DNA of 64,000 nt from an uncultured bacterium. GTDB lineage: Bacteria > Patescibacteriota > Minisyncoccia > UBA6257 > 2-01-FULL-56-20. The notes under the pieces were generated by a model. That model saw nothing but the letters and a program-made list of their open reading frames with translations, was not told the DNA's origin and ran no database searches. Position 1 is the first letter of the stretch, and every line of letters starts with the position of its first letter. The DNA lies in the NCBI GenBank assembly GCA_963844965.1, contig CAWJQC010000009.1:62037-126036 (forward strand), read 5' to 3'. The translations under genes were made by a program, and so were the position numbers. Positions 1 through 27,453 of the stretch are shown in pieces.

Positions 1-1487
1 TCGTCTTTTTTCCCTCAAAATTCAAGCGTGCAACGACTTCCGCCGCGCACTCGGCAAATTCCCTTACCTCGTTCCATTGGGGCAAAATAAAGTCATTCTG
101 GCGCTCTCCCGCCTCTGGCGGCTTTGGCATCCTGCTTTCCAGTAAAGCAACCCGTGCCCGTAAATCGCTCTTGTATTCCTTCAGCTTCTCCATGCCTATC
201 AGCCCCGCCCCGTATGCCCTGTCATAGCGAGCTTCCTCGTCTTTCAACTTCTCAACGTCCCTTTTGAAATTGAAAATGGATATATCGGGGCGCGCCGCGC
301 TTTCTTTCTTTTTCCCGATAAACTTCTGCGCGTTTTTCATCATCAGTTCCGGCGAAGTCATAATCCCTGCCGTCTTTTTCCATACGAGCGCATCGGCTAT
401 CCTCGCGTTTATTCCCCGCTCGGCGCACTTCGGAGGCAAGGGGAAGCTGTGAACCCTATCCGTGCAGCGATAATAAAGATGTTTCCCGCGCTGCGGGCCT
501 TCTCCGGCCCGCCTTCTCCCGCATCCGCAGTAAATCTTCCCGCTCAAAAGATACTCGTTTTTCCGGTTTCGCTGGCACTCCGCGAAATTTACCGCAAGTT
601 GCCGCGCCGCCCGCTCAAATAATTCTCGGCTGATGAGGGCGGGTGTCGTTATTTTTATCCACTCCTCCTCCGGCCTCACCTTGCGGCTCGTCTTTTTGAT
701 TCTCCGGTAGCCCTCTTTCTTAAACGGATTCTCCGGCACGACGGCATAAGAGCTTCCATAATGCCCTTCGCCTATGTAGGTTTTATTCCTCAAAAGCGTT
801 GAAAGGGTGCTGGTATTCCAAACGCCCCGCGCGCTCCAGCGCGGCGCTATGCCCGCTTTCATAAGCTCCTTCACAACCTGCCGCAAAGTAAGCCCGTCAT
901 CGGCAATCCACGAAAATATCTTTTTAACAACGGTTGCCTCTTGTTCGTTGATTTCATAGCAGCCATGTTTCCCATCCGTTTCTTTTTTCGGCTTAAAAAT
1001 ATAGCCGTAGGGAGCTTCGCTGGTAATAATATGCCCCTCTTTTGCCTTCCGCAGTTTCCCAAGCCGGAAGCGCTCGGCGATTTTCGCCCTCTCATACTCG
1101 GCAAAAAGCCCCCTAACACCGTGCAGGATTTTCTCCTCGCTATTTTTCGGACGGAATGGTAACGAACAATACTTCAACTCCCGCCTCCCGTAGTTCGTCC
1201 ATCACCAATTCCTGATAAGAGTAGCGGCGGGCCAACCTATCTGGGTCATAAATCAAAACCGCTTCCCATATCTTCTTTTTCACGTCCTGCCGGAGCTGGT
1301 CGAGTTGAGGCCGCACGAGCGTGTCCCCGCTCCAGCCGTTATCAATGTATTCCTGCACGATGGTGTAGCCATTTTTCACGGCAAACTCCCGAACGGCGAC
1401 AAGCTGGGTTTCAATAGTGCCTTCATCCGGCGAGGTGCTGACACGGGCGTATATGGCAATCAATTTTATGATGGCGGCTTCGTTCAT
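1..1487 (-). CDS. large serine recombinase (resolvase-type catalytic domain + recombinase domain + Zn ribbon + coiled coil); runs past window start; frame broken at an A5 run near 1140-1160
   Basis: ORF 1140..1487 is a resolvase N-terminal catalytic domain (IAIYARVSTS, catalytic Ser). My manual translation of minus strand 1..1160 in the neighbouring frame is stop-free. It reads ILHGVRGLFAEYERAKIAERFRLGKLRKAKEG...SEAPYGY...GKIYCGCG...HLYYRCTDR, which is a recombinase domain plus Zn ribbon. The frames meet at ccgaaaaatagc; one extra A would fuse them. Confidence 0.8.
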
Positions 1488-1711
1488 CGTTTCGTGTTCT
1501 TATGTTTGCTTAAAAACTTTTGATATTCGCTTTTCGGTATGCGCCAGAGCGCCGTCCCTTTGCCGAGTTTATACCCGACCAACAGCCCCTTTTGAAGCCA
1601 GCGTTGAACTGTGCGGGGATGTATCCGCAGATTTTTAGCGATTTCGTCTTTCGTGAGAAACTCCATGCTTTTAATTCTATTCCCAATAGTCGCAGTTGTC
1701 AAAATTGTCAA
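1484..1711 (-). CDS. excisionase-family helix-turn-helix DNA-binding protein (Xis-like)
   Basis: 75 aa. LTKDEIAKNLRIHPRTVQRWLQKGLL...YKLGKG..WRI fits the excisionase/MerR-like HTH pattern. Its stop overlaps the recombinase start as ATGA. Confidence 0.6.
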   Translation of the reverse strand: MTILTTATIGNRIKSMEFLTKDEIAKNLRIHPRTVQRWLQKGLLVGYKLGKGTALWRIPKSEYQKFLSKHKNTKR

Positions 1712-1771
1712 AAGTGGACATCTTACCCCACCACCCCACTCACTATATCGTAGGCGTAAAACAATAGTGAG

Positions 1772-3298
1772 TTAGAGGGTGGGGTAAATGAGCATCCTCC
1801 TTCTATCGTCAGGGTCTGCTTCTTGGGCTATCAGTCCGGCATTTTCCAGCATCGGGATAATCTGTTGTCGCAAAAGCCAATCTGGGAGCGGCCGTCCATA
1901 CACTTGGAAGTGTTTTTGCGTTATTTCCCGTCTTGTAAGCCCGCATGGGGCGCTCGCCATACCATCATCATTCCTGCTTTGGTTCTTCTCCTCCCATAGA
2001 GGAATAATCACTTCGTTGAAAATCTGGTATACATACGGCGGCAGGTTCAGCTCTTGGCTTTCAGATATAGCGTCCCACACTTTAAAGGCATTTTTGATGT
2101 CATCCTCATTCGCCACGATGGTTGAGCCGTCTCTCTCCCTGAACCAAACATTCAACAAGGCAAATGCCTTAATAAGTGATAAAATACGTCCGATGTCTCG
2201 CTGGTGGCGCGGCTTCAACCTCTTGTTTGCGCTGAAAAATCCCTCCCCCACTTTTTCCGGCGTGCCTATTTTTATGTCGCTTATATGCGCCTGCCTAATT
2301 GCCAGTATCCGCTCTTTAAGAAGTTTGCGCTCCGGCTTTTCGTCCAACGCCAGTTGGTATGCTTCATTGTCGGCTTCTTTTCGTATTTTCTCATAAATTG
2401 CCTCCCGTATCTTTTCTTGGTCTGTCTGGGGACTTAACAATATAAATCTCGTCGTTTCCTGCTCGTCTGCTTTTAGTCCCGCCGTGCAAAAAATAACGGA
2501 GGGAAACCCCCTTAAAAATATATTTTTCGTTTTTAGCCCGCCTCGCTGTGTCTTATCGGTAATCTTGAGCTTTATCTCTTTTCTATCGTGCGAAAGTAGC
2601 GGGCGGAGATGTTGGAGAAGCAAGGTATGTGGCTGGTCAAGAAAAATGAGAATCTTACGGGACAAATCAACGACAAGTTCATTCGTCTCTTTTCTATACT
2701 CTTTTGCCTTATCGTGGAAAAATGCCGTTGGTGAGCAGTAGCCAAGTTCAATAATATCTTCTTGCGGAAATAATTGAGCAATTTCTGTTGGGATATAAGA
2801 TTTACCAGTTGAAGAGGGGGCATTAAAACTGATATTGAGTTGTGCGTTCTCGGTATAGGCGGAAAGCTCGCAAAGGAAAGTAATGAGCTTATTCTCTTCG
2901 TCTTTTTTGATGGTTATGCCAAGTATTTTAAGAATCTCTTCGGATGAAAGCGGCTTGAATTGCGAGGTGTCAATCGGCATTTCCGGCGCTGGTTCGGAGT
3001 TTGTGTCCGCCAAAGGAGGTGTTTCGGCTGCATCTGCTATCGCCCTTCTCTCTTTAGGAATGGTCTCTTGGGTTTCCTCAATTCCCATTTCCTTCAGGAT
3101 TTCGGTCAGTTCTGCTTCTTTTCTACAAAACCAACAAGTGCCACGCCCAGTTTCTGTATTGATATGTAGCGCATCCTTCGTGCCAGAGACAGCATCGGCG
3201 CAATAAGGACAGCCGATTCTTAAGAAGTTGCCCACGACTTCATACTCTATCTTATTTTTGTTGAGTAGTTTCTTTAGGTCTATTAGATTTATTTTCAT
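1772..3298 (-). CDS. primase/replication-like protein with N-terminal CxxC...CxxC zinc finger and P-loop NTPase motif
   Basis: 508 aa. GCPYCAD...CWFCRK is a zinc-binding motif; NAPSSTGKSY is a Walker-A-like motif. This architecture is typical of plasmid/phage primase-helicase-like replication proteins. Confidence 0.45.
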   Translation of the reverse strand: MKINLIDLKKLLNKNKIEYEVVGNFLRIGCPYCADAVSGTKDALHINTETGRGTCWFCRKEAELTEILKEMGIEETQETIPKERRAIADAAETPPLADTNSEPAPEMPIDTSQFKPLSSEEILKILGITIKKDEENKLITFLCELSAYTENAQLNISFNAPSSTGKSYIPTEIAQLFPQEDIIELGYCSPTAFFHDKAKEYRKETNELVVDLSRKILIFLDQPHTLLLQHLRPLLSHDRKEIKLKITDKTQRGGLKTKNIFLRGFPSVIFCTAGLKADEQETTRFILLSPQTDQEKIREAIYEKIRKEADNEAYQLALDEKPERKLLKERILAIRQAHISDIKIGTPEKVGEGFFSANKRLKPRHQRDIGRILSLIKAFALLNVWFRERDGSTIVANEDDIKNAFKVWDAISESQELNLPPYVYQIFNEVIIPLWEEKNQSRNDDGMASAPCGLTRREITQKHFQVYGRPLPDWLLRQQIIPMLENAGLIAQEADPDDRRRMLIYPTL

Positions 3299-3466
3299 CT
3301 TAATTTTTGATTATTTTGTTAAAATCTTTCATCTTTCGCGCCCGCCACAACTCTAACGCCTTCTCAAACACCCGATTATAGGCCCGCTCCACTCTGCATC
3401 TGCGCTCCATATCCTCATCCTCCGTCATCCCTGCGGGCTCGTGATAAAATATTTTCAATGGCGTTC
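3299..3466 (-). CDS. small hypothetical protein (56 aa), translationally coupled on both sides
   Basis: Found by manual translation: MRTPLKIFYHEPAGMTEDEDMERRCRVERAYNRVFEKALELWRARKMKDFNKIIKN. Its ATG overlaps the upstream stop as ATGA, and its stop abuts the ATG of the primase-like gene. It is below the 60-aa cutoff of the ORF track. Confidence 0.35.
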
Positions 3467-3718
3467 TCATTGGCTTTCGTAGAGCCGCCCCTTAATAATC
3501 CGCATCGCGTTGAAGTAGGCCGCCGGCTCGACCTTTAGCTCCCCGCGCCAGTAGCCCGTAATCAGTTCGTCCAATTTGGCATCCCGCTTGAAAATGAACT
3601 GCGCCTTGCGTGGATTCTCGCGGTCTATTGCTTCGAGCGGATAGAAAAGCGAAAGTGCCGTCGCGAGGGCGAGGTCTTGTGTCTTTACCAAATCATTTTC
3701 GTTTAATCGCGGAATCAT
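3467..3718 (-). CDS. small conserved mobile-element-associated protein (DUF5659-like, recalled from memory)
   Basis: 83 aa. VKTQDLALATALSLFYPLEAIDRENPRKAQFIFKRD...YWRGELKV resembles small proteins often found beside integrases. Confidence 0.35.
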   Translation of the reverse strand: MIPRLNENDLVKTQDLALATALSLFYPLEAIDRENPRKAQFIFKRDAKLDELITGYWRGELKVEPAAYFNAMRIIKGRLYESQ

Positions 3719-3819
3719 TCATGGCGATGACTCCGGCGAAATTAAAAAGCCGAAGCTCATCATGCTTCGACTTTACTAAATCGTCAGGTGAGTCAATTAC
3801 GACTCAATTGCTTCACATC

Positions 3820-4596
3820 TTAATAATTCCGTTTTATTGTTTTTTCTTGCCAAGTAAATAATTCGTCATCTGTGTTGCACACTTCTTTTATCCGTTTGTT
3901 CAGGGCATCCATAGCGTCATAAACCACTCGCCAGTTTTCTCTGGTTGCTGGCGGTTTCCCGAAAAATGCTTTGTAATATCCGACTATTCCCTCATAAATT
4001 TTAGACCAATCTATGGGTTCGCTCGCTCTATACTCATACATCGCACGACAAAGAAAATGCTCATTTTTATAGGGTGGAATTTGGCAATTTTGAGTTCCAA
4101 TGTACAACAGCGCCTTATCATCGTCATATTTTATCCCCATAGATTTTAGGCTAATTTTTGGTTTTGTGGTATTTTCTATCGTTTCTTTTTCATCGCCATC
4201 CGGTTTTGGAGCGATGGCATCAAATTTTTCCGTGTCAATCTCCAAAATATAAACCGGCTTATCGTAATCCTTATCTGGAGAAGAAACGAAGTTTGGCCGC
4301 TTTGGATAGGTGGGTTGCGGCGCATGAGGCGCAAACATGTGTATCTTTTTAAGAACAACGCGACCTTGCGCCATCCTCTCAAATCCTAATTTTATATCTT
4401 GGTCATCTAAACCCTCACTTAAGAGTTTCTCATGATATATCGGAATGTGAAGCGTTTTAATGCCAAACGGCCTCCGGTATTCCAGCGCATCATCTATTAC
4501 TCCTAAAAGTATTTCATATTTATTCTTCATTTTCATTGTCATTATTGCCTTTATTTTACCACCTTTTCCGCGCTCCGGCAACATAAAATCAGACAA
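3820..4596 (-). CDS. hypothetical protein (element cargo)
   Basis: 258-aa ORF with no recognisable motifs. The start may be the internal MKMKNKYEI. Confidence 0.4.
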   Translation of the reverse strand: MSDFMLPERGKGGKIKAIMTMKMKNKYEILLGVIDDALEYRRPFGIKTLHIPIYHEKLLSEGLDDQDIKLGFERMAQGRVVLKKIHMFAPHAPQPTYPKRPNFVSSPDKDYDKPVYILEIDTEKFDAIAPKPDGDEKETIENTTKPKISLKSMGIKYDDDKALLYIGTQNCQIPPYKNEHFLCRAMYEYRASEPIDWSKIYEGIVGYYKAFFGKPPATRENWRVVYDAMDALNKRIKEVCNTDDELFTWQEKTIKRNY

Positions 4597-4791
4597 AAAA
4601 CCGCCCCTTGCCGGCGGAAAATTCTCCCATTACGGATTACAGAAGGGGGTGGCAGGAGGGGCTGGAGATACCCTTTTTAGCGCCCCCATCATATCACTGG
4701 TGCTCATACGCACGCATCCCCTTAATATCGGGGGCATTGATACATACCCGATCCGATACCTGACCCTATGCTGTTTCCTTATAAAACCGCA

Positions 4792-5067
4792 CTAACGCCA
4801 AACGAGGGGAAAAACCGCCATCGCGCCCTTTGAGGCCTGCTTTTTCTTTGGCTTTTTTCGCTCCTCCTTCGGAAGTTCGGGAATCCCATGCTCATCCGCC
4901 AGCATCACCTCGCTATGGTATATGCGCCATTTCCTGCCTATCTTAAAGCCCCGCAACTGCCCTCTTTCAAGGAAGCGGCGAATAGTTTTGATACTCACGG
5001 CCCAATGCCGCGCTAAATTTCTGGTCGTCCAAGAGCGTTGGACAATAAGCGCTTCGTCTCTGTCCAT
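4792..5067 (-). CDS. excisionase-family HTH DNA-binding protein
   Basis: WTTRNLARHWAVSIKTIRRFLERGQLRGFKIGRKWRI matches the helix-turn-helix / excisionase pattern. Confidence 0.5.
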   Translation of the reverse strand: MDRDEALIVQRSWTTRNLARHWAVSIKTIRRFLERGQLRGFKIGRKWRIYHSEVMLADEHGIPELPKEERKKPKKKQASKGAMAVFPLVWR

Positions 5068-5297
5068 GGATTGACTTCCTCCTTTGGGGCTTCGGCCAAG
5101 CCCTCGCGGGTTAATCGTAGCGCCTCCTCGTAGGGTATGCGGCGCAATTTTCCGAGCTTCACGCTTCTTATCTTCTGGCTTTTAATCCACCGGTTAATGG
5201 TCGCTATGCTGACGGAAAGCTGACGGGCGAGTTCCTTTGTTTTCCACGCGCGCTCCACAAAGTATTCGTTGTAGCTCATGGTATAATTATACTCCAT
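5013..5297 (-). CDS. excisionase-family HTH DNA-binding protein (second copy)
   Basis: WKTKELARQLSVSIATINRWIKSQKIRSVKLGKLRRI. It overlaps the previous ORF by 55 nt, so the downstream gene probably uses a later start. Confidence 0.5.
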   Translation of the reverse strand: MEYNYTMSYNEYFVERAWKTKELARQLSVSIATINRWIKSQKIRSVKLGKLRRIPYEEALRLTREGLAEAPKEEVNPWTETKRLLSNALGRPEI

Positions 5298-5369
5298 GCG
5301 AGCATCATCTTATCCCCATCCACATCCACAACGCTTTACTTTAGCCCACAGATTGCTATTATTCAAATC

Positions 5370-5957
5370 ATGGCAGAGCCAATATCGCAGGAGAAGGAGG
5401 TTGTTTACATCAATTATTTTGACGGAATTGATATGGAAAGGGTGCGCCTCTTGATGGGCGTTTGCACACAAATTTTAGGCCAACTCAAACCAAAAACTTT
5501 ATATTTTCTTTTCGCATCTCCTGGGGGACAGGTGGATGCAGGTATCGCTTTGTATAATTTTCTTAAAGCCATTCCTCCAAAAATCGTGATGCACAATATG
5601 AGTTCGGTGGATTCAATTGGAACTGTAGTTTTTCTTGCTGGGGATGAACGATACGCCTCTCCAAACACCACTTTCCTTTTCCATGGTGTGAGTACTCAAT
5701 TCCAGAAAGAAGCTGCCCTTAATTTAAGTCAAATCAAAGAAATAGAAAGCCGGCTCTCGGAAGACCAAAATAAAATAGCTGGTATCATTGCTGACAACAG
5801 CCAAATTACAAAAGAAGAGGTGCAAAGGTTATTCGCTCAAGGAGAAACTAAATCCTTGGACTTCGCCAAGCAAAAAGGGTTCATCACTGACATTAAATCC
5901 CTCCGCCTCTCTCACGAGGATGTTCTTATCAATGTTGGTTTCCAAAGTAAGGGATAG
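5370..5957 (+). CDS. ClpP-family (S14) serine peptidase-like protein
   Basis: 195 aa. LYFLFASPGGQVDAGIALYNFLKAIPPKIVMHNMSSVDSIGTVVFLAGDERYASPNTTFLFHGVS parallels the ClpP core (NSPGG...catalytic Ser...His). It is divergently transcribed from the HTH genes. Confidence 0.6.
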   Translation: MAEPISQEKEVVYINYFDGIDMERVRLLMGVCTQILGQLKPKTLYFLFASPGGQVDAGIALYNFLKAIPPKIVMHNMSSVDSIGTVVFLAGDERYASPNTTFLFHGVSTQFQKEAALNLSQIKEIESRLSEDQNKIAGIIADNSQITKEEVQRLFAQGETKSLDFAKQKGFITDIKSLRLSHEDVLINVGFQSKG

Positions 5958-6300
5958 CTTTTCCCGTTCTAAATAGGGAAATCCCGCATAGAAGTAATTG
6001 GTGTCAGACAACTTTTTTTCTTTTTCCGGCATAGTCATGTACCCAGTATACCAAATCTCCACAACGGTGCAAATGCGTCCACGGTTTTAATTTAATTGCG
6101 CTAATTACTGAAAAAACGATAGCAAACTCCATGTATTGTCTGGATACTTATCGTCTCGTTATATATGTTATTATCCCCTATACTGGCGCAATCTACCTCC
6201 TCAAATATGCCCGTAGAATAAGTCCCATTATTATCGTGAATGGTATTATACATAATTGTGTTTGCATCAAAAATACCATCGCCATTATTTTGAATATTGT

Positions 6301-8118
6301 TTAGCAGTACCTTGTCGCCGTCAAAAATTCCCGCATAATGGCGGCCTGTCCCACCGGACCCATCGGGAGCTTGCCATATACATACCCGCCTTTAGCTGAA
6401 TTTTGAATTGTTAAATATTGAATTGTGCTGTTTTTTGCCCCCACTACTGTATTCCCGGTATTACTACCGTCTATTATTGTTTTATTTTCATCTTCTCCGT
6501 AAATACTAACTCCATCTTTTAGCACAACATTTTCATAATAAGTACCGTCGGCTATTTTAATATTATCTCCGCTTTGAGCGGCGTTTATTGCCGCTTGAAT
6601 TGTTGGATAATCGGCTGGCACATTAATGACATTTTGCAATTGCGTAGAAAAAGATTTTTGATCGCTCGTAGCCGTATTACCACTTTTATCAGAAGCGTTT
6701 ATTTTATAATTATAAATTGTCCCCGGTAATAATCCTGTAACAGAAATACTGTGGCTCGTTGAAAGCGTGGAATCAGATAATACTAATACGTCATAATCTC
6801 CAAAGGGAGAATATGATAATTGGATGGTACTGGGTTCGTCTGTTGTGAGTGAAATCACCGCAGAATTTGTGGTTGTATTAGATGATTGGATATTAGATAT
6901 TACGGGTGGCATGCTATCGCAAGAGGTCGTCTCGTCAGGTTTTCCAGTAGTAATTCCACAATGCATCAAATCGTTGCAGGTTCGTGTTTGTTGAGAATTT
7001 GCACAAGTGCTCCATGAGCCACATTGCCAGTTAGGAGTACACGTACATGATTGCGTCAAAGCCGGTTCTCCGGTTGAAACGCCGCAACTGTTTGAATCGT
7101 TGCAGGTTCGTGTTTGCATAGAATTCAAGCAGGTGTTCCAATTTGTGCATTGCCAATTTGGGGTACAATTAACCGTTGTTGAACAACTGGTAGTTTGAGT
7201 TTGCCCGCCAAAATTAACAGTAAGATTGGCTGTTTTAGTACCTGCTTGAGAAAAAGAATTTGAACAGCTTGATTTAGACCCAACACAATCACCAGTCCAA
7301 GAATAAATATAAGTACCAGTTCCTCCTAAAATTGCGACAGAGGAAGAAAATGTTACCGATTGGTTTGTTTGGTATGAGTTTGAATTTGCCGAACAAGAAA
7401 CGGAAAGCGTTGCTGTGGGCGGAGTGCACGATTGAGTTAAAATTGGCTCTCCGGTTGCAACTCCACAATTATTTGAATTGCTACAAGTCCTCATTTGTTG
7501 GGAATTTGCACAAGTGCTCCATGAGCCACATTGCCAATTTGGAGTACATGCTGGTGGCGTAGTATTTTGTTGAATTTGCTGAAGCGTTTGATTTGTTTGC
7601 TGTTGGGCCGCTAACTGTTTTTGCAACAAGGCAACCTGCTGCAGAAGTGCGCTCAATTGCGACTGCAGTGAATTATTAATGTCATTCGTAGTTGCGGGCG
7701 GCGTTGGAGTTGGCGGCGTTGAACTGGTTTCCGCAATCGCCTGCGCGTTGGATGCCGAAAGCTGTTGCGACAATATCGCGTTTGCTGCCGTTCTTGTGAG
7801 CGGCCCGAAATATCCCGCGGGTGGCGTTATGTCTTGAGTAGTTTGGAATTGCTTGACCCCCGCGAGCGTCAAAGAAAAGAAATTGCCGCTGATTGGGCCG
7901 GAATATACGCCTTGAGATGTAAGAAATTCTTGGAGCTTGGTAACGTCGGAATCGCCCTGTATGCCGAAATATAAATCTTTTGTGAATAAGGTTTGCGCCT
8001 TGACCACTGGAATACCAAAGGAAGCCACGAGAAGAACTGCGATAACAAATTTTTTCATATTCATTTTCATTGTTTTCATGGCACTCTTTTTTCTAACGAA
8101 CAACATTAACCATCGCAC
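6301..8118 (-). CDS. secreted cell-surface protein: signal peptide, peptidoglycan-binding-like domain, Q-rich coiled coil, 4 tandem Cys-rich modules, right-handed beta-helix C-terminus; C-terminus probably extends to about 6060 through a frameshift
   Basis: The likely start is the internal MKKFVIAVLLVASF signal peptide. LQEFLTSQGVYSGPISGNFFSLTLAGVKQFQ is a PG-binding-like motif. CTPNWQC(G/T)(S/N)W(S/N)TC.NS.Q.RTC repeats four times. In another frame, rc of 6060..6300 reads NNIQNNGDGIFDANTIMYNTIHDNNGTYSTGIF, which is more beta-helix repeats. The N-terminal 200 aa are paralogous to 42233..44319. Confidence 0.6.
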   Translation of the reverse strand: MRWLMLFVRKKSAMKTMKMNMKKFVIAVLLVASFGIPVVKAQTLFTKDLYFGIQGDSDVTKLQEFLTSQGVYSGPISGNFFSLTLAGVKQFQTTQDITPPAGYFGPLTRTAANAILSQQLSASNAQAIAETSSTPPTPTPPATTNDINNSLQSQLSALLQQVALLQKQLAAQQQTNQTLQQIQQNTTPPACTPNWQCGSWSTCANSQQMRTCSNSNNCGVATGEPILTQSCTPPTATLSVSCSANSNSYQTNQSVTFSSSVAILGGTGTYIYSWTGDCVGSKSSCSNSFSQAGTKTANLTVNFGGQTQTTSCSTTVNCTPNWQCTNWNTCLNSMQTRTCNDSNSCGVSTGEPALTQSCTCTPNWQCGSWSTCANSQQTRTCNDLMHCGITTGKPDETTSCDSMPPVISNIQSSNTTTNSAVISLTTDEPSTIQLSYSPFGDYDVLVLSDSTLSTSHSISVTGLLPGTIYNYKINASDKSGNTATSDQKSFSTQLQNVINVPADYPTIQAAINAAQSGDNIKIADGTYYENVVLKDGVSIYGEDENKTIIDGSNTGNTVVGAKNSTIQYLTIQNSAKGGYVYGKLPMGPVGQAAIMREFLTATRYC

Positions 8119-8296
8119 AATCTCCTTCGTAACACTTTAGAAGGTCTAATATACTGCCTGCAGGGTTGTTGCTGTAAATATCGGATGTTGTTTTATAAAT
8201 CTTTTCCAACTGCGAGGAAATGCGAAACAGTAAAACAATCGCCACTATCAGCAAAGCGACTATTACCCATAGGGGGCTCGTAGATTTTAAATCCAT
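8093..8296 (-). CDS. small hypothetical membrane protein
   Basis: 67 aa with one hydrophobic helix (WVIVALLIVAIVLLF). Weak call. Confidence 0.25.
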   Translation of the reverse strand: MDLKSTSPLWVIVALLIVAIVLLFRISSQLEKIYKTTSDIYSNNPAGSILDLLKCYEGDCAMVNVVR

Positions 8297-8302
8297 AAAA
8301 AT

Positions 8303-8518
8303 TTATTTTTTATCAGCCCAAAGTTTGTAAAGAATGAAGGTAATAATTCCAAAGAAAATAAAGAAGAATGGAACAGTGATTAAGCTCCCAATTATAACTG
8401 TATAGCCGTTGAGAGAATATCTCCCATCAAGAACGCCCAGAAAATATGAAGAATAGAACCCAACAATCGGAGATAAAATTAAATAAATAGTGATGATTAT
8501 TTTTTGAGATTTATTCAT
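8303..8518 (-). CDS. small hypothetical membrane protein
   Basis: 71 aa with two hydrophobic helices. Weak call. Confidence 0.25.
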   Translation of the reverse strand: MNKSQKIIITIYLILSPIVGFYSSYFLGVLDGRYSLNGYTVIIGSLITVPFFFIFFGIITFILYKLWADKK

Positions 8519-8544
8519 ATAATTTTATTTTTCCATATTTTAAA

Positions 8545-8930
8545 TCTAACCAAAAAGGGACTAACCGCACCACCTTGCGTCCCACAGTTTCAGACACCAC
8601 GAGGGCATCTTTAGTGGAAGATGGGCGATTAGCCCCTTCCTGCACTAAAGAAAAACCCTCTGGCGACACAAAACCGTAGGACGCACCTTTACTATACCAC
8701 GATAGCCCCGCAAGGCAACAAAAGCAACCGCCCGTTCGTGGGGCGATGTCCCACTCTTTTTTGAAACTCCAAAGAAAACTAACCCTATGGGGTTAAATCA
8801 AAAAGCCGGCGCGGACTTTCCCGCCGGCCCGAAACCGCGCCGAAATTGAATCACCGCCCCGCCCCCGCCGTGCCGCTCAAAGCCGGTCTGCGCCCTCTCG
8901 CTGGAAACGGCATCCTAATCGTAAATTCAA
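8545..8930 (-). ncRNA. rnpB: candidate RNase P RNA (bacterial type)
   Basis: The minus strand reads ...GGCGGGAAAGUCCGCGCCGGC...ACCCCAUAGGGUUAG... This matches the universal P4 5'-strand GGAAAGUCCGGGC and the downstream CCAUAGGG motif. Near the 3' end, GGUGCGGUUAG can pair back to GUCCGCGCC as a P4 3' strand. The stretch is a 390-nt non-coding gap between genes. The only ORFs there, 8846..9049 on both strands, look spurious. Confidence 0.45.
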
Positions 8931-9059
8931 ATGGAATCAGTTTTAATCTGCCTTCGCTCTCAACCCCGTGTCGTGTTGTGTTCGCTCCATACCTATGGAT
9001 AGTTTCATTTGTGTTAATATTAAAGAAAAGTCGCGTAATTAACAAATAGTATAAACGAT

Positions 9060-10328
9060 ATGAATAAAAAAATTGTTTTTACGGCCGCTTCGGCCGCATT
9101 TCTGCTCGTAGTTTTATTGGCAAACGCCCAAATGCCGGTTCCTGCCGCTAATAACGCAGAAGCGTCTGGTGTCGGCACGGTGGCATCGAGCGCAACCGCA
9201 ACGGTTGTTCCTGGAGCCATGAATCCAACTTTTATCATCAACCCGGTATCTCCAACGCTTGGCGGAAGTAATTCTTCGGGAACACCGGTCATGAATCCGC
9301 CGATTATAGCAAGACCCATATTGCCGCCGACGCAGGGCAATAATATTATCCAATTCAACAACCTAACCGTACAAAGCGTTTCGGCAACCACCCCGCCGGC
9401 AGAAATTGTAGCCAATGGCGGTATCTATAACATTCAGAGCGGCGGCACAACACCGCCAACGATGCAGCCGATGAATGCGCAAGTTTTCCCGCAAGCCACG
9501 CAGACATCTTCAATGAATTATTTGCAATCCAAATGTTTGAGGTATGAAAGTTTAGAGTCAAATTCCCCGATGGTAATCGCCTGCCCTGTTCCTCAAACTT
9601 CCGCTCCCGCGAGTTCAACCGTCACTGTCTCGCCCGGAGCAACCGCAATAATGCCAGTAGTGCCACCGATATATCGCGGCGGACAATATCGTCTTGAGGT
9701 ATCCACAACGACCCACCTCATGTTTAATGACCGTACATCGGCGGCATTAACCGATTTCTCGCCCGGCGATCAAATAAACGTTTACGGCATATACAATGAG
9801 GACGGAACCGTAGACGCGCTTATCGTTCGCAATCTTTCCAAGCCGTTCACAAAGCAGTTTGTCCAGCTCAACAACGTTAATTTGGTTTCGGTCTCGGCGA
9901 CAACCACTCCGGCAACGCTTGTGGTCGCGCAGCAAATCGCCAATCCCTGTTACGGTTTCGGCACCGATGGTAACACTAGGCAGGGAGCCATAGCCTGCCC
10001 CACGGGACTGCAATCGTTATCCGACAATGCCGCGTCGCAGAATGTCACGGTGCCGCAAGCCATAATGCCCATTTTCAACCAATCGCGGAAGTATGTGATA
10101 CAAATCGACACGCAAACAATACTGATGGACCGTGAGCGGGGTACACTCGCGCTTGGTGATCTCAAGATTGGTGATCAATTGAATATTTACGGCGCGACGC
10201 TGGACACAAACGGCGCGACGATTAATGCGGATATCGTCCGCGACCTCACGCAACCTCCGGTGGCGCAGAACTACAGTGGCCGCGTTACTCAGGTGAACGC
10301 CGACGGCTCGTTCGTGATTCAGAACTGA
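9060..10328 (+). CDS. secreted repetitive protein with signal peptide; probably continues to about 10448 after a +1 frameshift
   Basis: It starts MNKKIVFTAASAAFLLVVLLANA. The second half shows internal repeats, for example QINVYGIYNEDGTVDALIVRNL and QLNIYGATLDTNGATINADIVRDL. After the stop, the +1 frame reads TDGGETYTVQNPIQVGATVQLKGLL. Confidence 0.5.
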   Translation: MNKKIVFTAASAAFLLVVLLANAQMPVPAANNAEASGVGTVASSATATVVPGAMNPTFIINPVSPTLGGSNSSGTPVMNPPIIARPILPPTQGNNIIQFNNLTVQSVSATTPPAEIVANGGIYNIQSGGTTPPTMQPMNAQVFPQATQTSSMNYLQSKCLRYESLESNSPMVIACPVPQTSAPASSTVTVSPGATAIMPVVPPIYRGGQYRLEVSTTTHLMFNDRTSAALTDFSPGDQINVYGIYNEDGTVDALIVRNLSKPFTKQFVQLNNVNLVSVSATTTPATLVVAQQIANPCYGFGTDGNTRQGAIACPTGLQSLSDNAASQNVTVPQAIMPIFNQSRKYVIQIDTQTILMDRERGTLALGDLKIGDQLNIYGATLDTNGATINADIVRDLTQPPVAQNYSGRVTQVNADGSFVIQN

Positions 10329-10515
10329 CGGCGGCGAAACGTACACGGTGCAAAATCCGATACAAGTCGGCGCGACGGTCCAGCTCAAGGGGTTATTGGA
10401 CCAGCTGCAAAAAATTATATCGCAGGTTTCTCAGATTATATTGCAGTGAATAACGGGCGAGAATCACCCAACCAAAAAAGAAGGCGGAAACTAGGCAACG
10501 TTTCCGCCTTTTGGC

Positions 10516-10683
10516 TTACACCGCCCAGCCATAGCCATCTTCCCATTGTTCACTGCCGTCTTCGAGCGGATTTATCACCCCGGTTTCTTCCGCTTCCAGC
10601 TTCTTCGTTTCTGGAGTTTCATTTTTTGGCCGTACTTCAACCGTCTTTCCATTCGATGTCGACTGATCGTAAGGTCTTGACAT
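10516..10683 (-). CDS. small acidic hypothetical protein (55 aa) with canonical Shine-Dalgarno
   Basis: Manual translation gives MSRPYDQSTSNGKTVEVRPKNETPETKKLEAEETGVINPLEDGSEQWEDGYGWAV. It is preceded by GGGAGGTGAACAATG. It is not in the ORF track because it is under 60 aa. Confidence 0.35.
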   Translation of the reverse strand: MSRPYDQSTSNGKTVEVRPKNETPETKKLEAEETGVINPLEDGSEQWEDGYGWAV

Positions 10684-11013
10684 TGTTCACCTCCCAAAGA
10701 GCTATCTGCGATTCAGACCGTTTTCTGGTCTGAAAATTGATTATTTTCCAAACAATCAATTTTCAGGCCGGCATTGATTTAAAAAACCTCCTTTGGCGGG
10801 GAGGTCTTTTGCATTTTGATTTTGATATTTTATCGGTTTTTTACATATATGCAAGACCCCCTCGCCGTTTTCGGAGAATAAGTACAAGCAGAAGGCCAAG
10901 AAGACTCCGGGAGGACAAGGGCAAACTTTGAATTGCGAGATATGGCGTGTTCATTGTCATTTAGGTTCAGTTTATAGTGTTTGTCGGCTATGTCAAGAGC
11001 GCCCTGTGGAAAA

Positions 11014-11379
11014 TTAAATGCCGCTGTTTTTCTTTACGCCTCGCGCCATTTCAAAAAGCGCGAGCGCTCCCATCAAAAGCCCGACGTCCCTGAACGTGAT
11101 GTCCAAGATGTTCAAATTCAGAACAACTATCGCCGCGAGCGTTATGGCGGCGAGGAGCGAAACCCAAACGAGCTTGCGGCCCCAGAAAAGAAAAGCTGCG
11201 AGTATTATCTCATAAACGGAAAATGCGGCGGAGAGTAAGTTTGAGAACGGCATGTTCTGCAAAAACTGGGGAAAATATCCGGCCCAGTCGTCGGATTTAA
11301 TAAGTCCGGCTATGGCGGCGTAGAAGAAAACAAATGCCAGTCCCCAGCGCAAAATAATCTCGGCGGAATTTCTGTTCAT
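11014..11379 (-). CDS. DoxX-family membrane protein
   Basis: 121 aa with 3-4 TM helices. The WGLAFVFFYAAIAGL...DWAGYF pattern matches DoxX-like proteins. Confidence 0.5.
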   Translation of the reverse strand: MNRNSAEIILRWGLAFVFFYAAIAGLIKSDDWAGYFPQFLQNMPFSNLLSAAFSVYEIILAAFLFWGRKLVWVSLLAAITLAAIVVLNLNILDITFRDVGLLMGALALFEMARGVKKNSGI

Positions 11380-11389
11380 CCGTTTGTAT

Positions 11390-12397
11390 TTACATTATAC
11401 CTTTCGGGGTCTTACTTATTCGCACCTCCGAACCTGGCACGGTCACCCACTCGTCGTTAACCAATTCCTGGGTTGCCTTGAAAGATACGACCGCTTCCTC
11501 TTTGGGATGAACTCGGTCTTCTCCTTTTACCATTCTACTAAAAATTACGTCGCGCAGTTCCCGTTTCTGGTCGTCTTCGTACTTGTGTAATATCTCGCAA
11601 TCGCTCAAGAAAATTTTATGCCAGCTGCCACTGGGGTAGCCTGGCTCCCCGATAATTTCTTCCTCAACTTCTTCAACGTCGTGTTCAGCTGGATTCGCGG
11701 GGGTGGAAGATATTTCCCTTATAAGACGACGTCGCTTATCGCCCTCACGCCATTCCCTGATGACTTGATATTCTTCTTTTTTCGGTTCATCCACGCCTGC
11801 TTGTTCCATGTTTTTTATTATCTTTGATACAGCCCGACAAGATACCGCTTGTGCAAGTAAATACCTATTTATCTCCGCCTCAAGAGATTTTTTGTCCGAA
11901 CCCGACTTTAAGTCAATTACAGCGCTTAGCGCGTAAATTGTAAAGTGATAGTGGTGAACTCCGGATGGCGGGCAGGGACCGACGTAAGAAATCGTACCCG
12001 AACCATTTTTCCCTTCAATACTGCCGGCCGGCAAATCGCCATCCTCAATAACGGACGTCTTCGGGTCAATGTTCCAAACCAGCCAGTGCGTGAAGCCGCC
12101 GGCCATCGGCGCGTCCGGATCGTGCATTATGAGCGCCAAGCTTTTTGCTCCGGCCGGCACGCCGGAAATATCCAACTCGGGAATTGTATTTTCCCCGTCG
12201 CAGGTGAATCTCCTTGGAATATAGCCGTTATTTTCAAATGAGGTGCTTGTGATAGTCATAGAATTATTTATTGGGTTATTGTTGATGGTTGATGTTGCTG
12301 GAGTCGTCGTTATCCGAGACGCACGAAAAATATAAGCCGATACGAAGATTATAGCAAAAATTATGAATATTACGGTAATTCTCCGCGTTTTAGACAT
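11390..12397 (-). CDS. membrane-anchored PEBP/YbhB-YbcL family (Raf-kinase-inhibitor-like) protein fused to an acidic C-terminal domain
   Basis: It has an N-terminal TM helix. FTCDGENTIPEL...ALIMHDPDAP..GGFTHWLVWNI...GPCPPSGVHHYHFTIYAL are PEBP hallmark motifs. The C-terminal 150 aa are of unknown function. Confidence 0.7.
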   Translation of the reverse strand: MSKTRRITVIFIIFAIIFVSAYIFRASRITTTPATSTINNNPINNSMTITSTSFENNGYIPRRFTCDGENTIPELDISGVPAGAKSLALIMHDPDAPMAGGFTHWLVWNIDPKTSVIEDGDLPAGSIEGKNGSGTISYVGPCPPSGVHHYHFTIYALSAVIDLKSGSDKKSLEAEINRYLLAQAVSCRAVSKIIKNMEQAGVDEPKKEEYQVIREWREGDKRRRLIREISSTPANPAEHDVEEVEEEIIGEPGYPSGSWHKIFLSDCEILHKYEDDQKRELRDVIFSRMVKGEDRVHPKEEAVVSFKATQELVNDEWVTVPGSEVRISKTPKGIM

Positions 12398-12486
12398 TGT
12401 TTTAGACTATCAATTTATCAGTATATTACCTTCAAAATTAATGTTAAGTGCCGAAAAATTCAGTAAAATCAGGAAAAAATCGGCTG

Positions 12487-12514
12487 TTGACAAATATATA
12501 GAATCTGCTACAAT
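12487..12514 (+). promoter_or_regulatory. sigma70-like promoter TTGACA-16nt-TACAAT
   Basis: TTGACAaatatatagaatctgcTACAAT, 85 nt upstream of the small ORF at 12600. Confidence 0.35.
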
Positions 12515-12599
12515 ATGAGCAGCACCACCGAGAAGATTCCGGTGGGCCAAAATCTGTAAACCGTCGCTTATCAAAGGCGACGGGACGAAGGAGGATGCC

Positions 12600-12806
12600 A
12601 TGGCGGCAAAAAAGGGAGTACCTGCTTTTCTGATTTCTTACGGCCAAGCTGGACGGGAACGGAACAATATCCGGACCGCAGAGGTTGTGGTGTGCGTGTT
12701 GGGTCGTTCCACTACCCACCACCTTGAACTTCGGGGTGGAAAGTGGCTTGGCAAGAACGGTGTGGAATACAAAATCAACGACCGCATCAGAAATCGTAAG
12801 AACTGA
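12600..12806 (+). CDS. small basic hypothetical protein (68 aa) with good SD; alternatively part of a structured non-coding transcript
   Basis: AGGAGGatgccATG precedes it. The protein is MAAKKGVPAFLISYGQAGRERNNIRTAEVVVCVLGRSTTHHLELRGGKWLGKNGVEYKINDRIRNRKN. It lies inside a promoter-to-terminator unit, 12487..13092. Confidence 0.3.
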   Translation: MAAKKGVPAFLISYGQAGRERNNIRTAEVVVCVLGRSTTHHLELRGGKWLGKNGVEYKINDRIRNRKN

Positions 12807-13063
12807 GAGGGTCCAAAAGCCCACCACCCAGGACCCTAATCGAGGAGAGTGAGCTGTGCCAAGTAGGTAGACCCGCCGCCGAGGCCTAAGTCGGGGGGTT
12901 GAGAGACCAAAAATTCAGTCAAAATAAAAACAAATCCCGCGCTGACCCCAGCCGGTTGTATCCAGGGTGATACCGGTCAAACAAAAATCCACACTGGCTC
13001 CGCGAAAGCGAGGCGAAGTCTGTAGAAGATAGCACTCTACAGAAGGCAGGGCGGCAGTGCCCC

Positions 13064-13092
13064 AGGAGAGTTGGAAGACTCTCCTTTTTTTA
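13064..13092 (+). terminator. rho-independent terminator
   Basis: The stem is GGAGAGT..ACTCTCC with loop TGGAAG, followed by TTTTTTT. Confidence 0.55.
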
Positions 13093-13165
13093 TTGTTCAC
13101 TCGCAAGAATACCCTATACCTTCTTGCAACGTGATGAGAAGGTGTAGGGATGAATTGCGATGTGT

Positions 13166-13350
13166 GAATAATAAACCCCTCCCCATTTGTGGCAGGGGTT
13201 TGGTGATAACACCCAGCGAGAGCCGTAAGGCGACTTCGTCTTTGTATGTCGTGTGCGCATAGTTTTTGCGGCAAATGGAGAGGGGTGAATAACCGCAAGA
13301 CCGCAGAGCGGCTTGGATACCGCACCGCTCTGCGGTGCGGTTATTCATTT
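13166..13350. repeat. structured intergenic repeat, family 1, copy A (about 185 nt, two long imperfect hairpins)
   Basis: gaataataaacccctccccatttg...caaatggagaggggtgaataaccgc...accgctctgcggtgcggttattcattt. Copy B is at 39175..39358. The hairpin arms are conserved and the interior has diverged. Confidence 0.6.
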
Positions 13351-21900: not shown

Positions 21901-22481
21901 TTCAAAGTTGATGTCGCCGGTGCTCCGAAAAACGGACAGGAGCCCCACAATCCCTTTTTGGCTTCGCGCGCTTCCTTCTCCGCAGTCACGAACTCTGCCG
22001 CATATTTTACATCCGGCGGAAAAGTTAACGCCGCCGCGTATCCTTCTTTGACCAATTCCAAATTAACGAAAGTGTCGTCTTGAAGGTAAACGTATCGCAG
22101 AAGCCGGCCATATTCGTCGCGTTCGCTCACATCTTTTACCAAGCGAACCGACCTTCCTTCCACCAATTCCTTGTTTCGCCGCGACGCCTCGGCTCCAAAA
22201 CATTCAACTGGCTTCCGAGGGTCAACGGTTTCCGGCGCGTCCATGCCGATGTAACGAACACGCTCGCCGCCCGCGAGTTCAATTGTGTCGCCGTCAATCA
22301 CGCGGGTAACCAAAGATAATGTTTGTTGACCGACTGCCGGCTCGGCAATTGAAACCGTGCTGCTCGCGCCCGATACAAAAACAGCGGATTGCGGCGCGCT
22401 CTTTGGCGATAAGAACCTTCCGGCAAAGAACCCGGCGATCGCCACGCCCGCGAACAACAGAAAAAATGGAACGCGCTTCAT
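21897..22481 (-). CDS. secreted thermonuclease (SNase / micrococcal nuclease family)
   Basis: It has a signal/TM N-terminus. VIDGDTIEL.GGERVRYIGMDAPE...FG.EA...LVEGRSVRL...RDEYGRLLRYVY are SNase motifs. Confidence 0.8.
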   Translation of the reverse strand: MKRVPFFLLFAGVAIAGFFAGRFLSPKSAPQSAVFVSGASSTVSIAEPAVGQQTLSLVTRVIDGDTIELAGGERVRYIGMDAPETVDPRKPVECFGAEASRRNKELVEGRSVRLVKDVSERDEYGRLLRYVYLQDDTFVNLELVKEGYAAALTFPPDVKYAAEFVTAEKEAREAKKGLWGSCPFFGAPATSTLK

Positions 22482-22749
22482 CTACCAGATTGTAAGCGAT
22501 TCAAACCACATTTCAAGTTTCCGCCAACCTTTTTACAAAGAAGGGTCTCGTGGCGAACAGAGAGCTATTGTGGGATTGAATGGGCCGGCGCGAGGGACGG
22601 AGAATATTTTTCTCGTAACTTCTGCCCAGATTTTACGTTTTCTCTGTTATAGAAATATTGCAAGCGACCATGGAGGTAAAAATTAAAAGTCGAGCCTCCT
22701 AAAGTCGTTGAGATAAACCGCCGAAAGGCAAAAATATCTCATCGGTTGT

Positions 22750-22914
22750 ATGTCTACACAATTATTTGGTCCGGAATTTGCCGCCGCCTTTATGAAGGCT
22801 ACTTGGGATGGTGTGCGGCTTGGTTTCGGTCTCGTTTGGCAAATCTTCGCTGCCGCCTGGCCGCTATGGCTAATCCTTATCGTCGTCACTGCCGTTGCTT
22901 ATCGTCTTAGGTAA
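22750..22914 (+). CDS. small hypothetical membrane protein (54 aa)
   Basis: Manual translation gives MSTQLFGPEFAAAFMKATWDGVRLGFGLVWQIFAAAWPLWLILIVVTAVAYRLR. A terminator follows at 23009. Confidence 0.3.
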   Translation: MSTQLFGPEFAAAFMKATWDGVRLGFGLVWQIFAAAWPLWLILIVVTAVAYRLR

Positions 22915-23008
22915 TTATTGAGCTTGGCACTATGCGAACTTGTCGAAAAAAGGTCGGGGAAAAATCTTGTTCGTGATAGACGATAATGAAATCTCTTGAG
23001 CGAAATTA

Positions 23009-23051
23009 GCCGCCAACGAAAATAAAAAACTGTTGGCGGCTTTTCGTTTTT
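23009..23051 (+). terminator. rho-independent terminator (also lies 3' of the minus-strand defense operon)
   Basis: GCCGCCAAC gaaaataaaaaactg TTGGCGGC TTTTCGTTTTT. Confidence 0.5.
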
Positions 23052-23071
23052 ATAAGGCGGGGAGGCGCGCT

Positions 23072-23461
23072 TTATTCTTTGGGAAAAGATTCCTTCACGA
23101 TAATGTCGTTCTTCTCGTATGGCCCAGAACTGGGCGGCTCAATTTCATTGCAGAGCTTAGTCTTGCCATGATTATTATACAAACCAAACTCTATATCCAA
23201 TCTATTGTTCTCATCTGAAACCTTGGCGTATCTATAATATGGCGACCTGCCACTTTTAAAAACCTTGTCTTTTATGCACTTATTGTTTTTATAATGATCT
23301 GATAATCTGTCCTTTATTAAGTCCTGACCGACATAAACAGGGAATCTCTTGTCTGTTTCTAGATTGCGGTAGCCAATCAAATAAACTCCATCAAAATTTA
23401 GATTGGCAAAATTGTCATCATTAAATTTTTTTGGACCAGACCAAGTAACGGTGAACTCCAT
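23072..23461 (-). CDS. hypothetical protein with GIY-YIG-like motif, last gene of the lexA-hsd operon
   Basis: DGVYLIGYRNLETDKRFPVYVGQDLIKDRLSDH fits GIY-(10-11)-YIG followed by R and H. It is separated from hsdS by 1 nt. Confidence 0.4.
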   Translation of the reverse strand: MEFTVTWSGPKKFNDDNFANLNFDGVYLIGYRNLETDKRFPVYVGQDLIKDRLSDHYKNNKCIKDKVFKSGRSPYYRYAKVSDENNRLDIEFGLYNNHGKTKLCNEIEPPSSGPYEKNDIIVKESFPKE

Positions 23462-23462
23462 C

Positions 23463-25487: not shown

Positions 25488-25498
25488 TATTTTTTATC

Positions 25499-27452: not shown

Positions 27453-27453
27453 A

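Follow-up and report, generated by a model that had tools for sequence, protein, structure and literature searches.

The left edge of a 64,000-nt stretch of DNA from an uncultured bacterium of the Patescibacteriota (GenBank assembly GCA_963844965.1, contig CAWJQC010000009.1, positions 62,037 to 126,036; hereafter the window) carries a compact block of genes that probably derives from a mobile element. The open reading frame (ORF) list and domain searches reveal eight genes on the minus strand within positions 1–5957 and, on the plus strand, one gene for a ClpP-fold protein; all ORFs listed by a first-pass annotation of the sequence are present where it had placed them. Read in the direction of transcription, from right to left, the core of the block comprises a DUF5659 protein of 83 aa (3467–3718; PF18903, E 1.3e-9), a 56-aa ORF (3300–3470), a putative replication protein of 508 aa (1772–3298), a helix-turn-helix (HTH) protein of 75 aa belonging to the HTH_17/excisionase family (1484–1711) and a large serine recombinase (LSR) that leaves the window at its left edge (1–1487), while a palindrome of 63–65 nt (1723–1787, inverted repeat I2) straddles the stop codon of the 508-aa gene. 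The region from position 1 to ~5300, possibly to ~6100, thus probably represents the right-hand portion of an integrative element of small size, which can probably also replicate and the left end of which lies roughly 150–400 nt past the window edge; such an element accounts for the compositional anomaly at the left edge of the window. An integrative element with a terminal frameshifted recombinase, an Xis-like HTH protein and a replication gene had already been proposed by the first-pass annotation, and this order recurs in about 100 related loci. Its observations were largely correct and its interpretation partly so, and what it missed is the most interesting content of the locus: a replication gene of MCM-like nature, the large and conserved family to which this gene belongs, and the palindrome within the coding sequence.

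The 508-aa protein is composed of a zinc-binding domain, a linker, an MCM-like AAA+ core and a winged helix. It has no match in Pfam (E <= 0.01), PHROGs, NCBIfam or PADLOC; some homologues carry a precomputed assignment to PF27228, a more recent Pfam entry. More than 2,550 homologues were found, the best 120 of which are 58–77% identical, and a search with a profile against 1.84 billion cluster representatives returned 1,719 clusters (50% identity) at E <= 1e-3, with 681 at E <= 1e-30. In the AlphaFold model (pLDDT 76.6) MCM helicases are the top match in two independent comparisons (Foldseek E 3.5e-9), and the core has the AAA+ fold of the MCM/Mg-chelatase/MoxR/ComM group, followed by a C-terminal winged helix. 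Residues 1–75 form a zinc-binding domain of the DnaG/gp4 type, which is connected to the AAA+ core by a disordered linker of ~35 aa; when the first 77 residues were modelled alone (pLDDT 79.8), the top four fold matches were zinc-binding domains of Twinkle, T4 gp61 and DnaG. The initial description of the gene as “Zn-finger/P-loop primase-like” therefore holds for the primase-type zinc-binding domain, but not for the core, which is of the MCM-like AAA+ helicase type; no Toprim match was obtained for the window protein. By contrast, many of the homologues are longer and carry an N-terminal Toprim domain, and two of them (P0027 and P0041) unite the zinc-binding domain, Toprim and the same core in one chain. 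The core shared by the family spans profile positions ~90–505, while the N-termini are varied. Judged by these sequences, the full family architecture combines a DnaG-type primase and an MCM-like helicase in one fusion protein; the Toprim part has been lost from the window copy and from a sizeable sub-group of the family.

Within the core, the Walker A motif NAPSSTGKS (159–167) and a TRF motif containing R284, the putative arginine finger, are invariant in the family. The Walker B motif FLDQPH (219–224) has an invariant glutamine throughout the family at the position where the catalytic glutamate of AAA+ proteins is expected. Since the protein is not a member of the Pfam MCM family by sequence and its model contains no N-terminal OB fold of the MCM type, it is best described, on the strength of the model, as MCM-like by fold rather than as an MCM. 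The fold suggests a helicase or initiator function, and the gene is referred to below as the helicase gene. In archaea and eukaryotes the replicative helicase is an MCM-type motor, and in bacteria DnaG is normally paired with DnaB.

For comparison of the gene order, 100 non-redundant related loci were collected from genomes and metagenomes. The family order, all on one strand, is a variable large gene or cargo, DUF5659, an ORF of 65–70 aa, the helicase gene, one or two small genes and the LSR. DUF5659 lies no more than 2.5 kb upstream of the helicase gene in 56 of the 79 loci with enough sequence, and is often preceded by a small protein resembling sigma-70 region 2, while an LSR is found no more than 4.5 kb downstream of the helicase gene in 34 of 47 loci. 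The small genes between helicase and LSR encode either a Cys-rich family of 108–164 aa or, as in the window, an HTH_17 protein. The 56-aa ORF of the window is the positional equivalent of the conserved 65–70-aa ORF of the relatives, with no sequence similarity detectable between the two. It is coupled translationally on both sides, overlapping DUF5659 by ATGA and being separated from the 508-aa gene by a 1-nt gap; the ATGA overlaps by which the small ORFs had been described as coupled (DUF5659/56-aa ORF and HTH/LSR) are real.

In 28 of the 34 loci with a downstream LSR, a tRNA gene on the opposite strand overlaps or abuts, with its own 3′ end, the 3′ end of the recombinase gene (L002, L005, L007, L011, L013, L014, L017, L018, L030 and L033, among others). 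Seven tRNA identities are represented (His, Trp, Asn, Gln, Ser, Asp and Tyr), with an offset of mostly -23 to -38 nt. Targeting of tRNA genes is usual for tyrosine integrases and uncommon for serine integrases. Housekeeping genes flank the relatives: a 7-kb element in L033 lies with DHH and SHMT genes, and the element in L121 lies with ychF and the ATP synthase operon, being inserted at the 5′ end of ychF. Mobility is seen in L065 and L106, in which a 97%-identical element occupies two different chromosomal contexts and ends exactly at the 3′ ends of two different tRNA genes. Both copies share a conserved distal end of 145 nt, while the cargo between this end and DUF5659 differs. The comparison thus demonstrates that the family is mobile and has a cargo arm.

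The components of these elements are freely exchanged. The family LSRs fall into at least two clades that are mutually undetectable by BLAST. The LSR clade of the window, with its HTH_17 partner, is found in L121 (8087–11629) with an unrelated, uncharacterised 402-aa gene in the position of the helicase gene, and here too DUF5659 stands before the replication gene. In L119 (7776–11689) the same pair accompanies a PrimPol-PriCT-AAA_25 protein and restriction-modification cargo. Conversely, one branch of the helicase family has a different Toprim N-terminus and no zinc-binding domain (L076 at 9473–13184, L061, L066, L073, L080, L092, L096–L098, L112, L113 and L115); in L076, the one locus of this branch that was annotated, genes for a tyrosine integrase, for a restriction-modification pair of the NotI type and for a DUF499 protein come after the helicase gene. 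The helicase family was not found in IMG/VR viral contigs or in 50,697 phage genomes, and 72,556 plasmids yielded only two weak matches of 24% identity. According to their record titles, the loci belong mostly to Patescibacteria groups and also to Margulisiibacteriota; some metagenome-assembled genomes (MAGs) are labelled as Woese- or Pacearchaeota or as Gammaproteobacteria, and names of Planctomycetota occur among the protein matches.

The palindrome at the end of the helicase gene is conserved across the family. On the gene strand it consists of box 1 (TACCCCACC), 6 nt, box 2 (CTCACTAT) and, after a centre of 17 nt, the inverted copies of both boxes (ATAGTGAG, 6 nt, GGTGGGGTA). The same palindrome, exactly 63 nt long, is present in 52 distinct relatives, where it forms part of the ORF and encodes the tail IYPTTPLTIS..NNSE..GGV; the conservation of a peptide after the last folded domain is thus explained by the palindrome being translated there. 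In the window and in L014, the helicase ORF stops in the first spacer of the palindrome. Both arms are conserved in sequence, while the 6-nt spacers are not complementary, and a second right arm is present in tandem in L011, L077 and the tail of P0021. The window palindrome folds with -16.8 kcal/mol (z -5.0) when treated as single-stranded DNA. A test for covariation gave 91.9% pairing, which equals the shuffled controls, and no compensatory changes were seen. Mismatches in box 1 are biased (49 G·T versus 4 A·C), as would fit a hairpin of the sense strand, but equally synonymous C-to-T drift. A role as attachment site of the element (attP) was ruled out, as the palindrome is intact in integrated copies, and an RNA helix could not be demonstrated, given that the pair count equals that of the shuffles and that the window has no Rfam match. 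The origin of staphylococcal pathogenicity islands (SaPIs) lies directly 3′ of the rep gene and consists of repeats flanking an AT-rich core. Because the placement of the palindrome directly 3′ of the replication gene, with arms flanking a central spacer, resembles these origins, it may, by analogy, represent a replication origin or initiator-binding site, an assignment for which the chances are slightly below even.

In contrast to the helicase gene, the recombinase gene of the window is interrupted, and its product is not encoded in a single uninterrupted frame. An N-terminal fragment of 115 aa (1140–1487, minus strand) contains the catalytic serine in the motif YARVSTS and ends at a premature TAG (1140–1142), while the remainder (1–1153, minus strand, frame-2 translation) encodes the end of the catalytic domain, the Recombinase domain, the Zn ribbon and a coiled-coil. 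When the frame is repaired, the protein matches Resolvase (PF00239, E 3e-32, profile positions 1–144 of 145), Recombinase (PF07508, 4e-18) and Zn_ribbon_recom (PF13408, 5e-7), the scores of the latter two exceeding the gathering cutoffs, and 1,919 matches of 540–570 aa are 58–65% identical. Alignment with nine full-length homologues (62–65% identity) together with direct reading of the sequence places the frameshift at 1148–1151 (minus strand): the homologues show the unshifted consensus TTPS-PKN-EEKIL, whereas in the window TIPS and PKNSEEKIL are read in different frames, so that the conserved S-P-K-N motif is split. Since the Ser codon TCC (1151–1149) and the Pro codon CCG (PKN = CCG AAA AAT) share 2 nt, the lesion reads as a net -2 (or +1) indel at 1148–1151, directly 5′ of the A5 run at 1143–1147. 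The first-pass annotation had located the interruption exactly at the A5 run and considered this run a possible slippery site; the indel instead adjoins the run, which is directly followed by the premature TAG. Programmed frameshifting was rejected, as there is neither a slippery heptamer nor a Shine-Dalgarno-like stimulator, the conserved proline would be retained only by a -2 shift, and the nine homologues are unshifted.

The split of the recombinase is present in the public record as well, since the source annotation of the same contig calls the downstream part as a separate protein of 442 aa (P0241), which is 98% identical to the window over the overlap, with the differences confined to the out-of-frame N-terminal stretch of P0241. 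This protein runs 50 aa to the left past the window edge, so that the left attachment (att) site and the end of the element are located outside the window. The recombinase C-terminus that had been expected to the left is thus completed by these 50 codons, but the att site expected with it is not within reach of the window. Serine recombinases leave only 2 bp of crossover identity, and direct att repeats, which had been suggested as a mark of the element, are for this reason unsuitable as a test. The window contains no tRNA gene, and short direct repeats occur in it at chance level, so neither could serve as an att marker. The possibility that the LSR acts as an invertase in phase variation of the surface protein encoded to the right of the block was also considered; the sole long-range inverted repeat (30–61/7382–7413, 72% complementary) is weak, and the idea was dropped because the family-wide synteny accounts better for the LSR.

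Taken together, a cycle can be proposed in which the terminal LSR would integrate and excise the element, and which of the two reactions it performs may be controlled by the HTH_17 protein encoded next to it. The excised circle would then be replicated by its own initiator-helicase, the 508-aa protein, which would assemble on the 63-nt palindrome overlapping the 3′ end of its own gene. Because the window copy has no Toprim domain, priming would in this case require a primase of the host. Conserved accessory roles would be played by DUF5659 and the small coupled ORF, and the 258-aa gene and the two HTH genes upstream of DUF5659 would represent the variable cargo or regulatory arm of the family.

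Several observations weigh against this scheme. The left end of the element is outside the window, and integration of the window copy is deduced from its relatives; furthermore, none of the 12 complete short contigs is a circular or episomal form. At the level of sequence, neither Pfam MCM (PF00493) nor any helicase in the PDB matches the 508-aa protein, and a profile search of PDB sequences with the family found MarR-type winged helices only. The Walker B motif is invariantly D-Q rather than D-E, and in AAA+ proteins D-Q usually weakens ATP hydrolysis. The centre of the window palindrome departs from the A-rich consensus of the family, the arms do not covary, and the sub-branch with a tyrosine integrase keeps the left arm without the right one, so that the palindrome could be a regulatory or RNA element. 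A regulatory role is the main rival to the origin, and the corresponding view of the whole locus is that of an integrated plasmid-like or mobilisable element, with the palindrome serving as an operator, an RNA-level signal or an oriT-like nick site and replication taking place elsewhere or not at all. In the window, a promoter close to the consensus, from which the HTH and LSR genes would be transcribed, indeed follows the palindrome at a distance of 21 nt, and the stable single-strand hairpin, the G·T bias in box 1 and the missing right arm would fit such a signal as well. However, the next gene of most relatives starts 10–15 nt past the palindrome, which leaves no room for a promoter; covariation is absent also from the viewpoint of a regulatory hairpin, the spacers between the boxes are non-complementary, the extra tandem arms are iteron-like, and the palindrome accompanies the helicase gene regardless of the downstream gene or the LSR clade. 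An integrated plasmid of this kind thus seems rather unlikely.

Doubts of a different kind concern the state of the recombinase and the origin of the cargo. If the indel in the LSR gene is real, the window element would be unable to excise. The indel could also be a sequencing or assembly error, leaving the recombinase intact in the organism and the element still mobile. A length change of 2 nt in a short C/A homopolymer context is compatible with such an error, as are a second frameshifted gene only 5 kb away (the surface protein) and the integrity of the remaining element genes, including all invariant residues of the helicase family; on the other hand, the deposited annotation likewise splits off the 442-aa protein, and the other tabulated ORFs of the window are long and, by inspection, look intact, which speaks against a generally error-prone assembly. 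On balance, an artefact appears improbable, without being far-fetched. Much less credit can be given to a degraded prophage or a phage satellite resembling the phage-inducible chromosomal islands (PICIs), in which the ClpP-like protein would be the remnant of a prohead protease, the replication and integration modules of the satellite would be represented by helicase and recombinase, and a helper phage would be required for spread. The ClpP-like protein does match PHROG families of head-maturation proteases (phrog_94, E 2e-18), the HTH genes match excisionase PHROGs, and the size and gene logic recall PICIs and tycheposons (10.1101/2020.12.28.424599). Yet neither the window region nor the ~100 related loci contain capsid, portal, terminase or packaging genes, the helicase family does not occur in the viral contig and phage genome collections mentioned above, and the ClpP-like protein scores far below the cutoff of the head-maturation model (44.9 versus 120 bits), while its homologues adjoin toxin-antitoxin, Mrr and membrane genes rather than phage genes. 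A phage origin is therefore very unlikely, and a small integrative element with its own replication protein remains the preferred interpretation.

Among known systems, the staphylococcal cassette chromosome SCCmec is the closest parallel, as it combines large serine recombinases (Ccr) with an MCM-like helicase (Cch) (PMC7581432). In both cases a small chromosomal cassette is moved by large serine recombinases and encodes a helicase of the MCM-like AAA+ kind that ends in a winged helix and is presumed, in SCC, to replicate the excised circle. The window family differs in its N-terminus, which is a zinc-binding domain of the DnaG type (plus Toprim in relatives), whereas Cch has an N-domain of its own and a separate polymerase-like primase; moreover, its target is not rlmH and its hosts are uncultivated lineages. 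MCM-like helicases of bacterial elements described so far are either fused to an archaeo-eukaryotic primase (AEP/PrimPol) or stand alone (PMC5862659). BcMCM of a Bacillus cereus prophage and the AEP-MCM proteins of integrative plasmids are similar to the window family in that an N-terminal primase module is fused to an MCM-like AAA+ core and encoded on a mobile element (PMC5862659), but their primase is of the archaeo-eukaryotic kind, whereas the window family has a bacterial DnaG-type zinc-binding domain and Toprim, the window copy being restricted to the former. The order of Toprim followed by a hexameric helicase in one polypeptide is shared between the relatives and T7 gp4, Twinkle and P4 alpha; the motor of the window family, however, is an MCM-like AAA+ domain, while gp4 and Twinkle use the RecA-type motor of superfamily 4 and P4 alpha that of superfamily 3, and the window protein itself has no Toprim. 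SaPIs, PICIs and tycheposons, a minority of the latter carrying an LSR (10.1101/2020.12.28.424599), are likewise small and site-specific, encode an integrase, Xis, a primase/helicase and variable cargo, and are in many cases found at tRNA genes. In contrast to these islands, the window family has no packaging or capsid-redirecting genes and no sign of a helper phage, it is absent from viral contig collections, and its replication protein is unrelated.

The kind of element is thus known, while the architecture of the replication protein and the family itself appear to be undescribed. Within the open-access literature, to which the searches were limited, no description of the element family or of a Toprim-MCM-like fusion was found, and DUF5659 is mentioned in no paper. 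The combination of DnaG-type primase parts with an MCM-like motor would be new among known primase-helicase fusions. It is conceivable, with the balance tipped marginally to the side of doubt, that the 508-aa gene is the hallmark of a large and hitherto undescribed group of small integrative replicons found in Patescibacteria and in neighbouring, uncultivated lineages, a group characterised by a DnaG-type primase-MCM-like initiator, an origin palindrome inside the helicase coding sequence and LSRs that target tRNA 3′ ends with the recombinase ORF overlapping the tRNA. In that case, the constraint on the origin would explain the conserved tail YPTTPLTIS..NNSE..GGV, and the 58–77% identity across MAGs of differently labelled phyla, some of them archaeal, would place these elements among the most widely exchanged replicons of ultra-small cells. 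The family could help to trace gene flow among Patescibacteria. Furthermore, no genetic tools for Patescibacteria came up in the literature searches for the element family, and a compact (~6–12 kb), widespread element with an integrase, a candidate origin and a replication protein would be a natural starting point for a vector.

The HTH gene next to the recombinase (PF12728, E 5e-10; TIGR01764, 36.7 bits versus a cutoff of 28.8) is one of three excisionase-type HTH_17 genes of the element (1484–1711, 4792–5067 and 5013–5297) and overlaps the LSR start by ATGA. HTH–LSR pairs are also present in L028, L119 and L121, and the HTH homologues of these loci align from residue 14–16 of the window protein; judged from the alignment, the true start is most likely Met16 (ATG at 1666), giving a protein of 60 aa. 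It may act as a recombination directionality factor or as a regulator. A sigma-70-like promoter on the minus strand (1702–1674; TTGACA-17-TAGAAT, 11 of 12 matches), recognised by its match to the consensus, lies between the palindrome and the HTH and LSR genes. Its -10 box is followed after 7 nt by the ATG, so that the mRNA would have no leader or a minimal one, and a comparable arrangement is found in L029, with TATAAT and an ATG 6 nt on.

Upstream of DUF5659, the leftward-transcribed block begins with the gene for a 94-aa HTH_17 protein (5013–5297; PF12728, E 3e-7; TIGR01764, 40.1 bits; PADLOC mad1-like HTH, E 9e-8), which is overlapped by 55 nt by that for a 91-aa HTH_17 protein (4792–5067; PF12728, E 7e-7; TIGR01764, 29.6 bits) with a strong Shine-Dalgarno sequence. 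The two further HTH regulators and the DUF5659 protein reported by the first-pass annotation are thus borne out by matches to HTH_17/TIGR01764 and PF18903. The next gene (3820–4596, minus strand) encodes 258 aa, probably ~240 aa from an internal ATG, and its product has no match in Pfam, PHROG, NCBIfam, PADLOC or the PDB; its C-terminal 140 aa are common to the variable upstream gene of some relatives (40–47% identity; L005, L016 and L018). PADLOC also returned no match for the ClpP-like, DUF5659 and helicase proteins. In a consensus scan, two terminator-like hairpins on the minus strand divide the leftward genes into three units: a GC-rich hairpin followed by a T6 run (4617–4601) separates the HTH pair from the 258-aa gene, and a hairpin with an 11-bp stem (3774–3746), a pattern match, lies between the 258-aa gene and DUF5659.

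The right end of the element is less sharply defined than its core. The divergent gene on the plus strand (5370–5957) encodes a serine peptidase with the CLP_protease fold (PF00574, 60.6 bits versus a cutoff of 20.2), in which Ser82 and His105 are invariant and a near-invariant Glu159 aligns with the Asp of ClpP (alignment A4). It is not equivalent to housekeeping ClpP: TIGR00493 gives 31.9 bits against a cutoff of 308.6, the scores with all other NCBIfam models of ClpP are far below the cutoffs, and the ClpP-related head-maturation model likewise remains below its own (44.9 versus 120 bits). The family has 182 matches, none of them in the 100 related element loci, and in the two contexts examined its neighbours are Mrr, VTT-domain or toxin-antitoxin genes. 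Window positions 5391–6041 share 74–75% DNA similarity with L037 (5947–6558) and L038 (8022–8672), where the neighbours are entirely different, and the similarity begins ~20 nt inside the ORF and stops ~40–85 nt past the stop codon. The gene thus behaves as a single-gene unit, which may or may not belong to the element, and the proposal of a ClpP-like S14 protease as element cargo holds as regards the PF00574 fold but is not supported by any of the 100 relatives.

Candidate right ends are accordingly located at 5297–5370, at 5958–6100 or further to the right. The boundary between 5957 and ~6060 favoured by the first-pass annotation is not established, given that the ClpP-like gene is missing from all relatives and that the tetranucleotide composition is atypical well beyond it. 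Compared with the window baseline, the composition departs from position 1, as had been anticipated, but continues to do so up to ~9,000 rather than ending at 5960, and is strongest at 4,000–9,000, so that it does not mark 5960. The surface protein to the right (6101–8118, minus strand), which contains PG_binding_1, Cys-rich repeats, fn3 and a beta-helix, ends at 6101 rather than at ~6060 as first thought; its gene is frameshifted near 6330–6395, with the beta-helix part running to the stop at 6101. A second compositionally atypical island of low GC content lies at 22000–27500 and contains genes of the restriction-modification type (Methylase_S, HEPN_Cthe2314, N6_Mtase/Eco57I and HSDR_N_2), with a LexA gene adjoining at 27454–28095.

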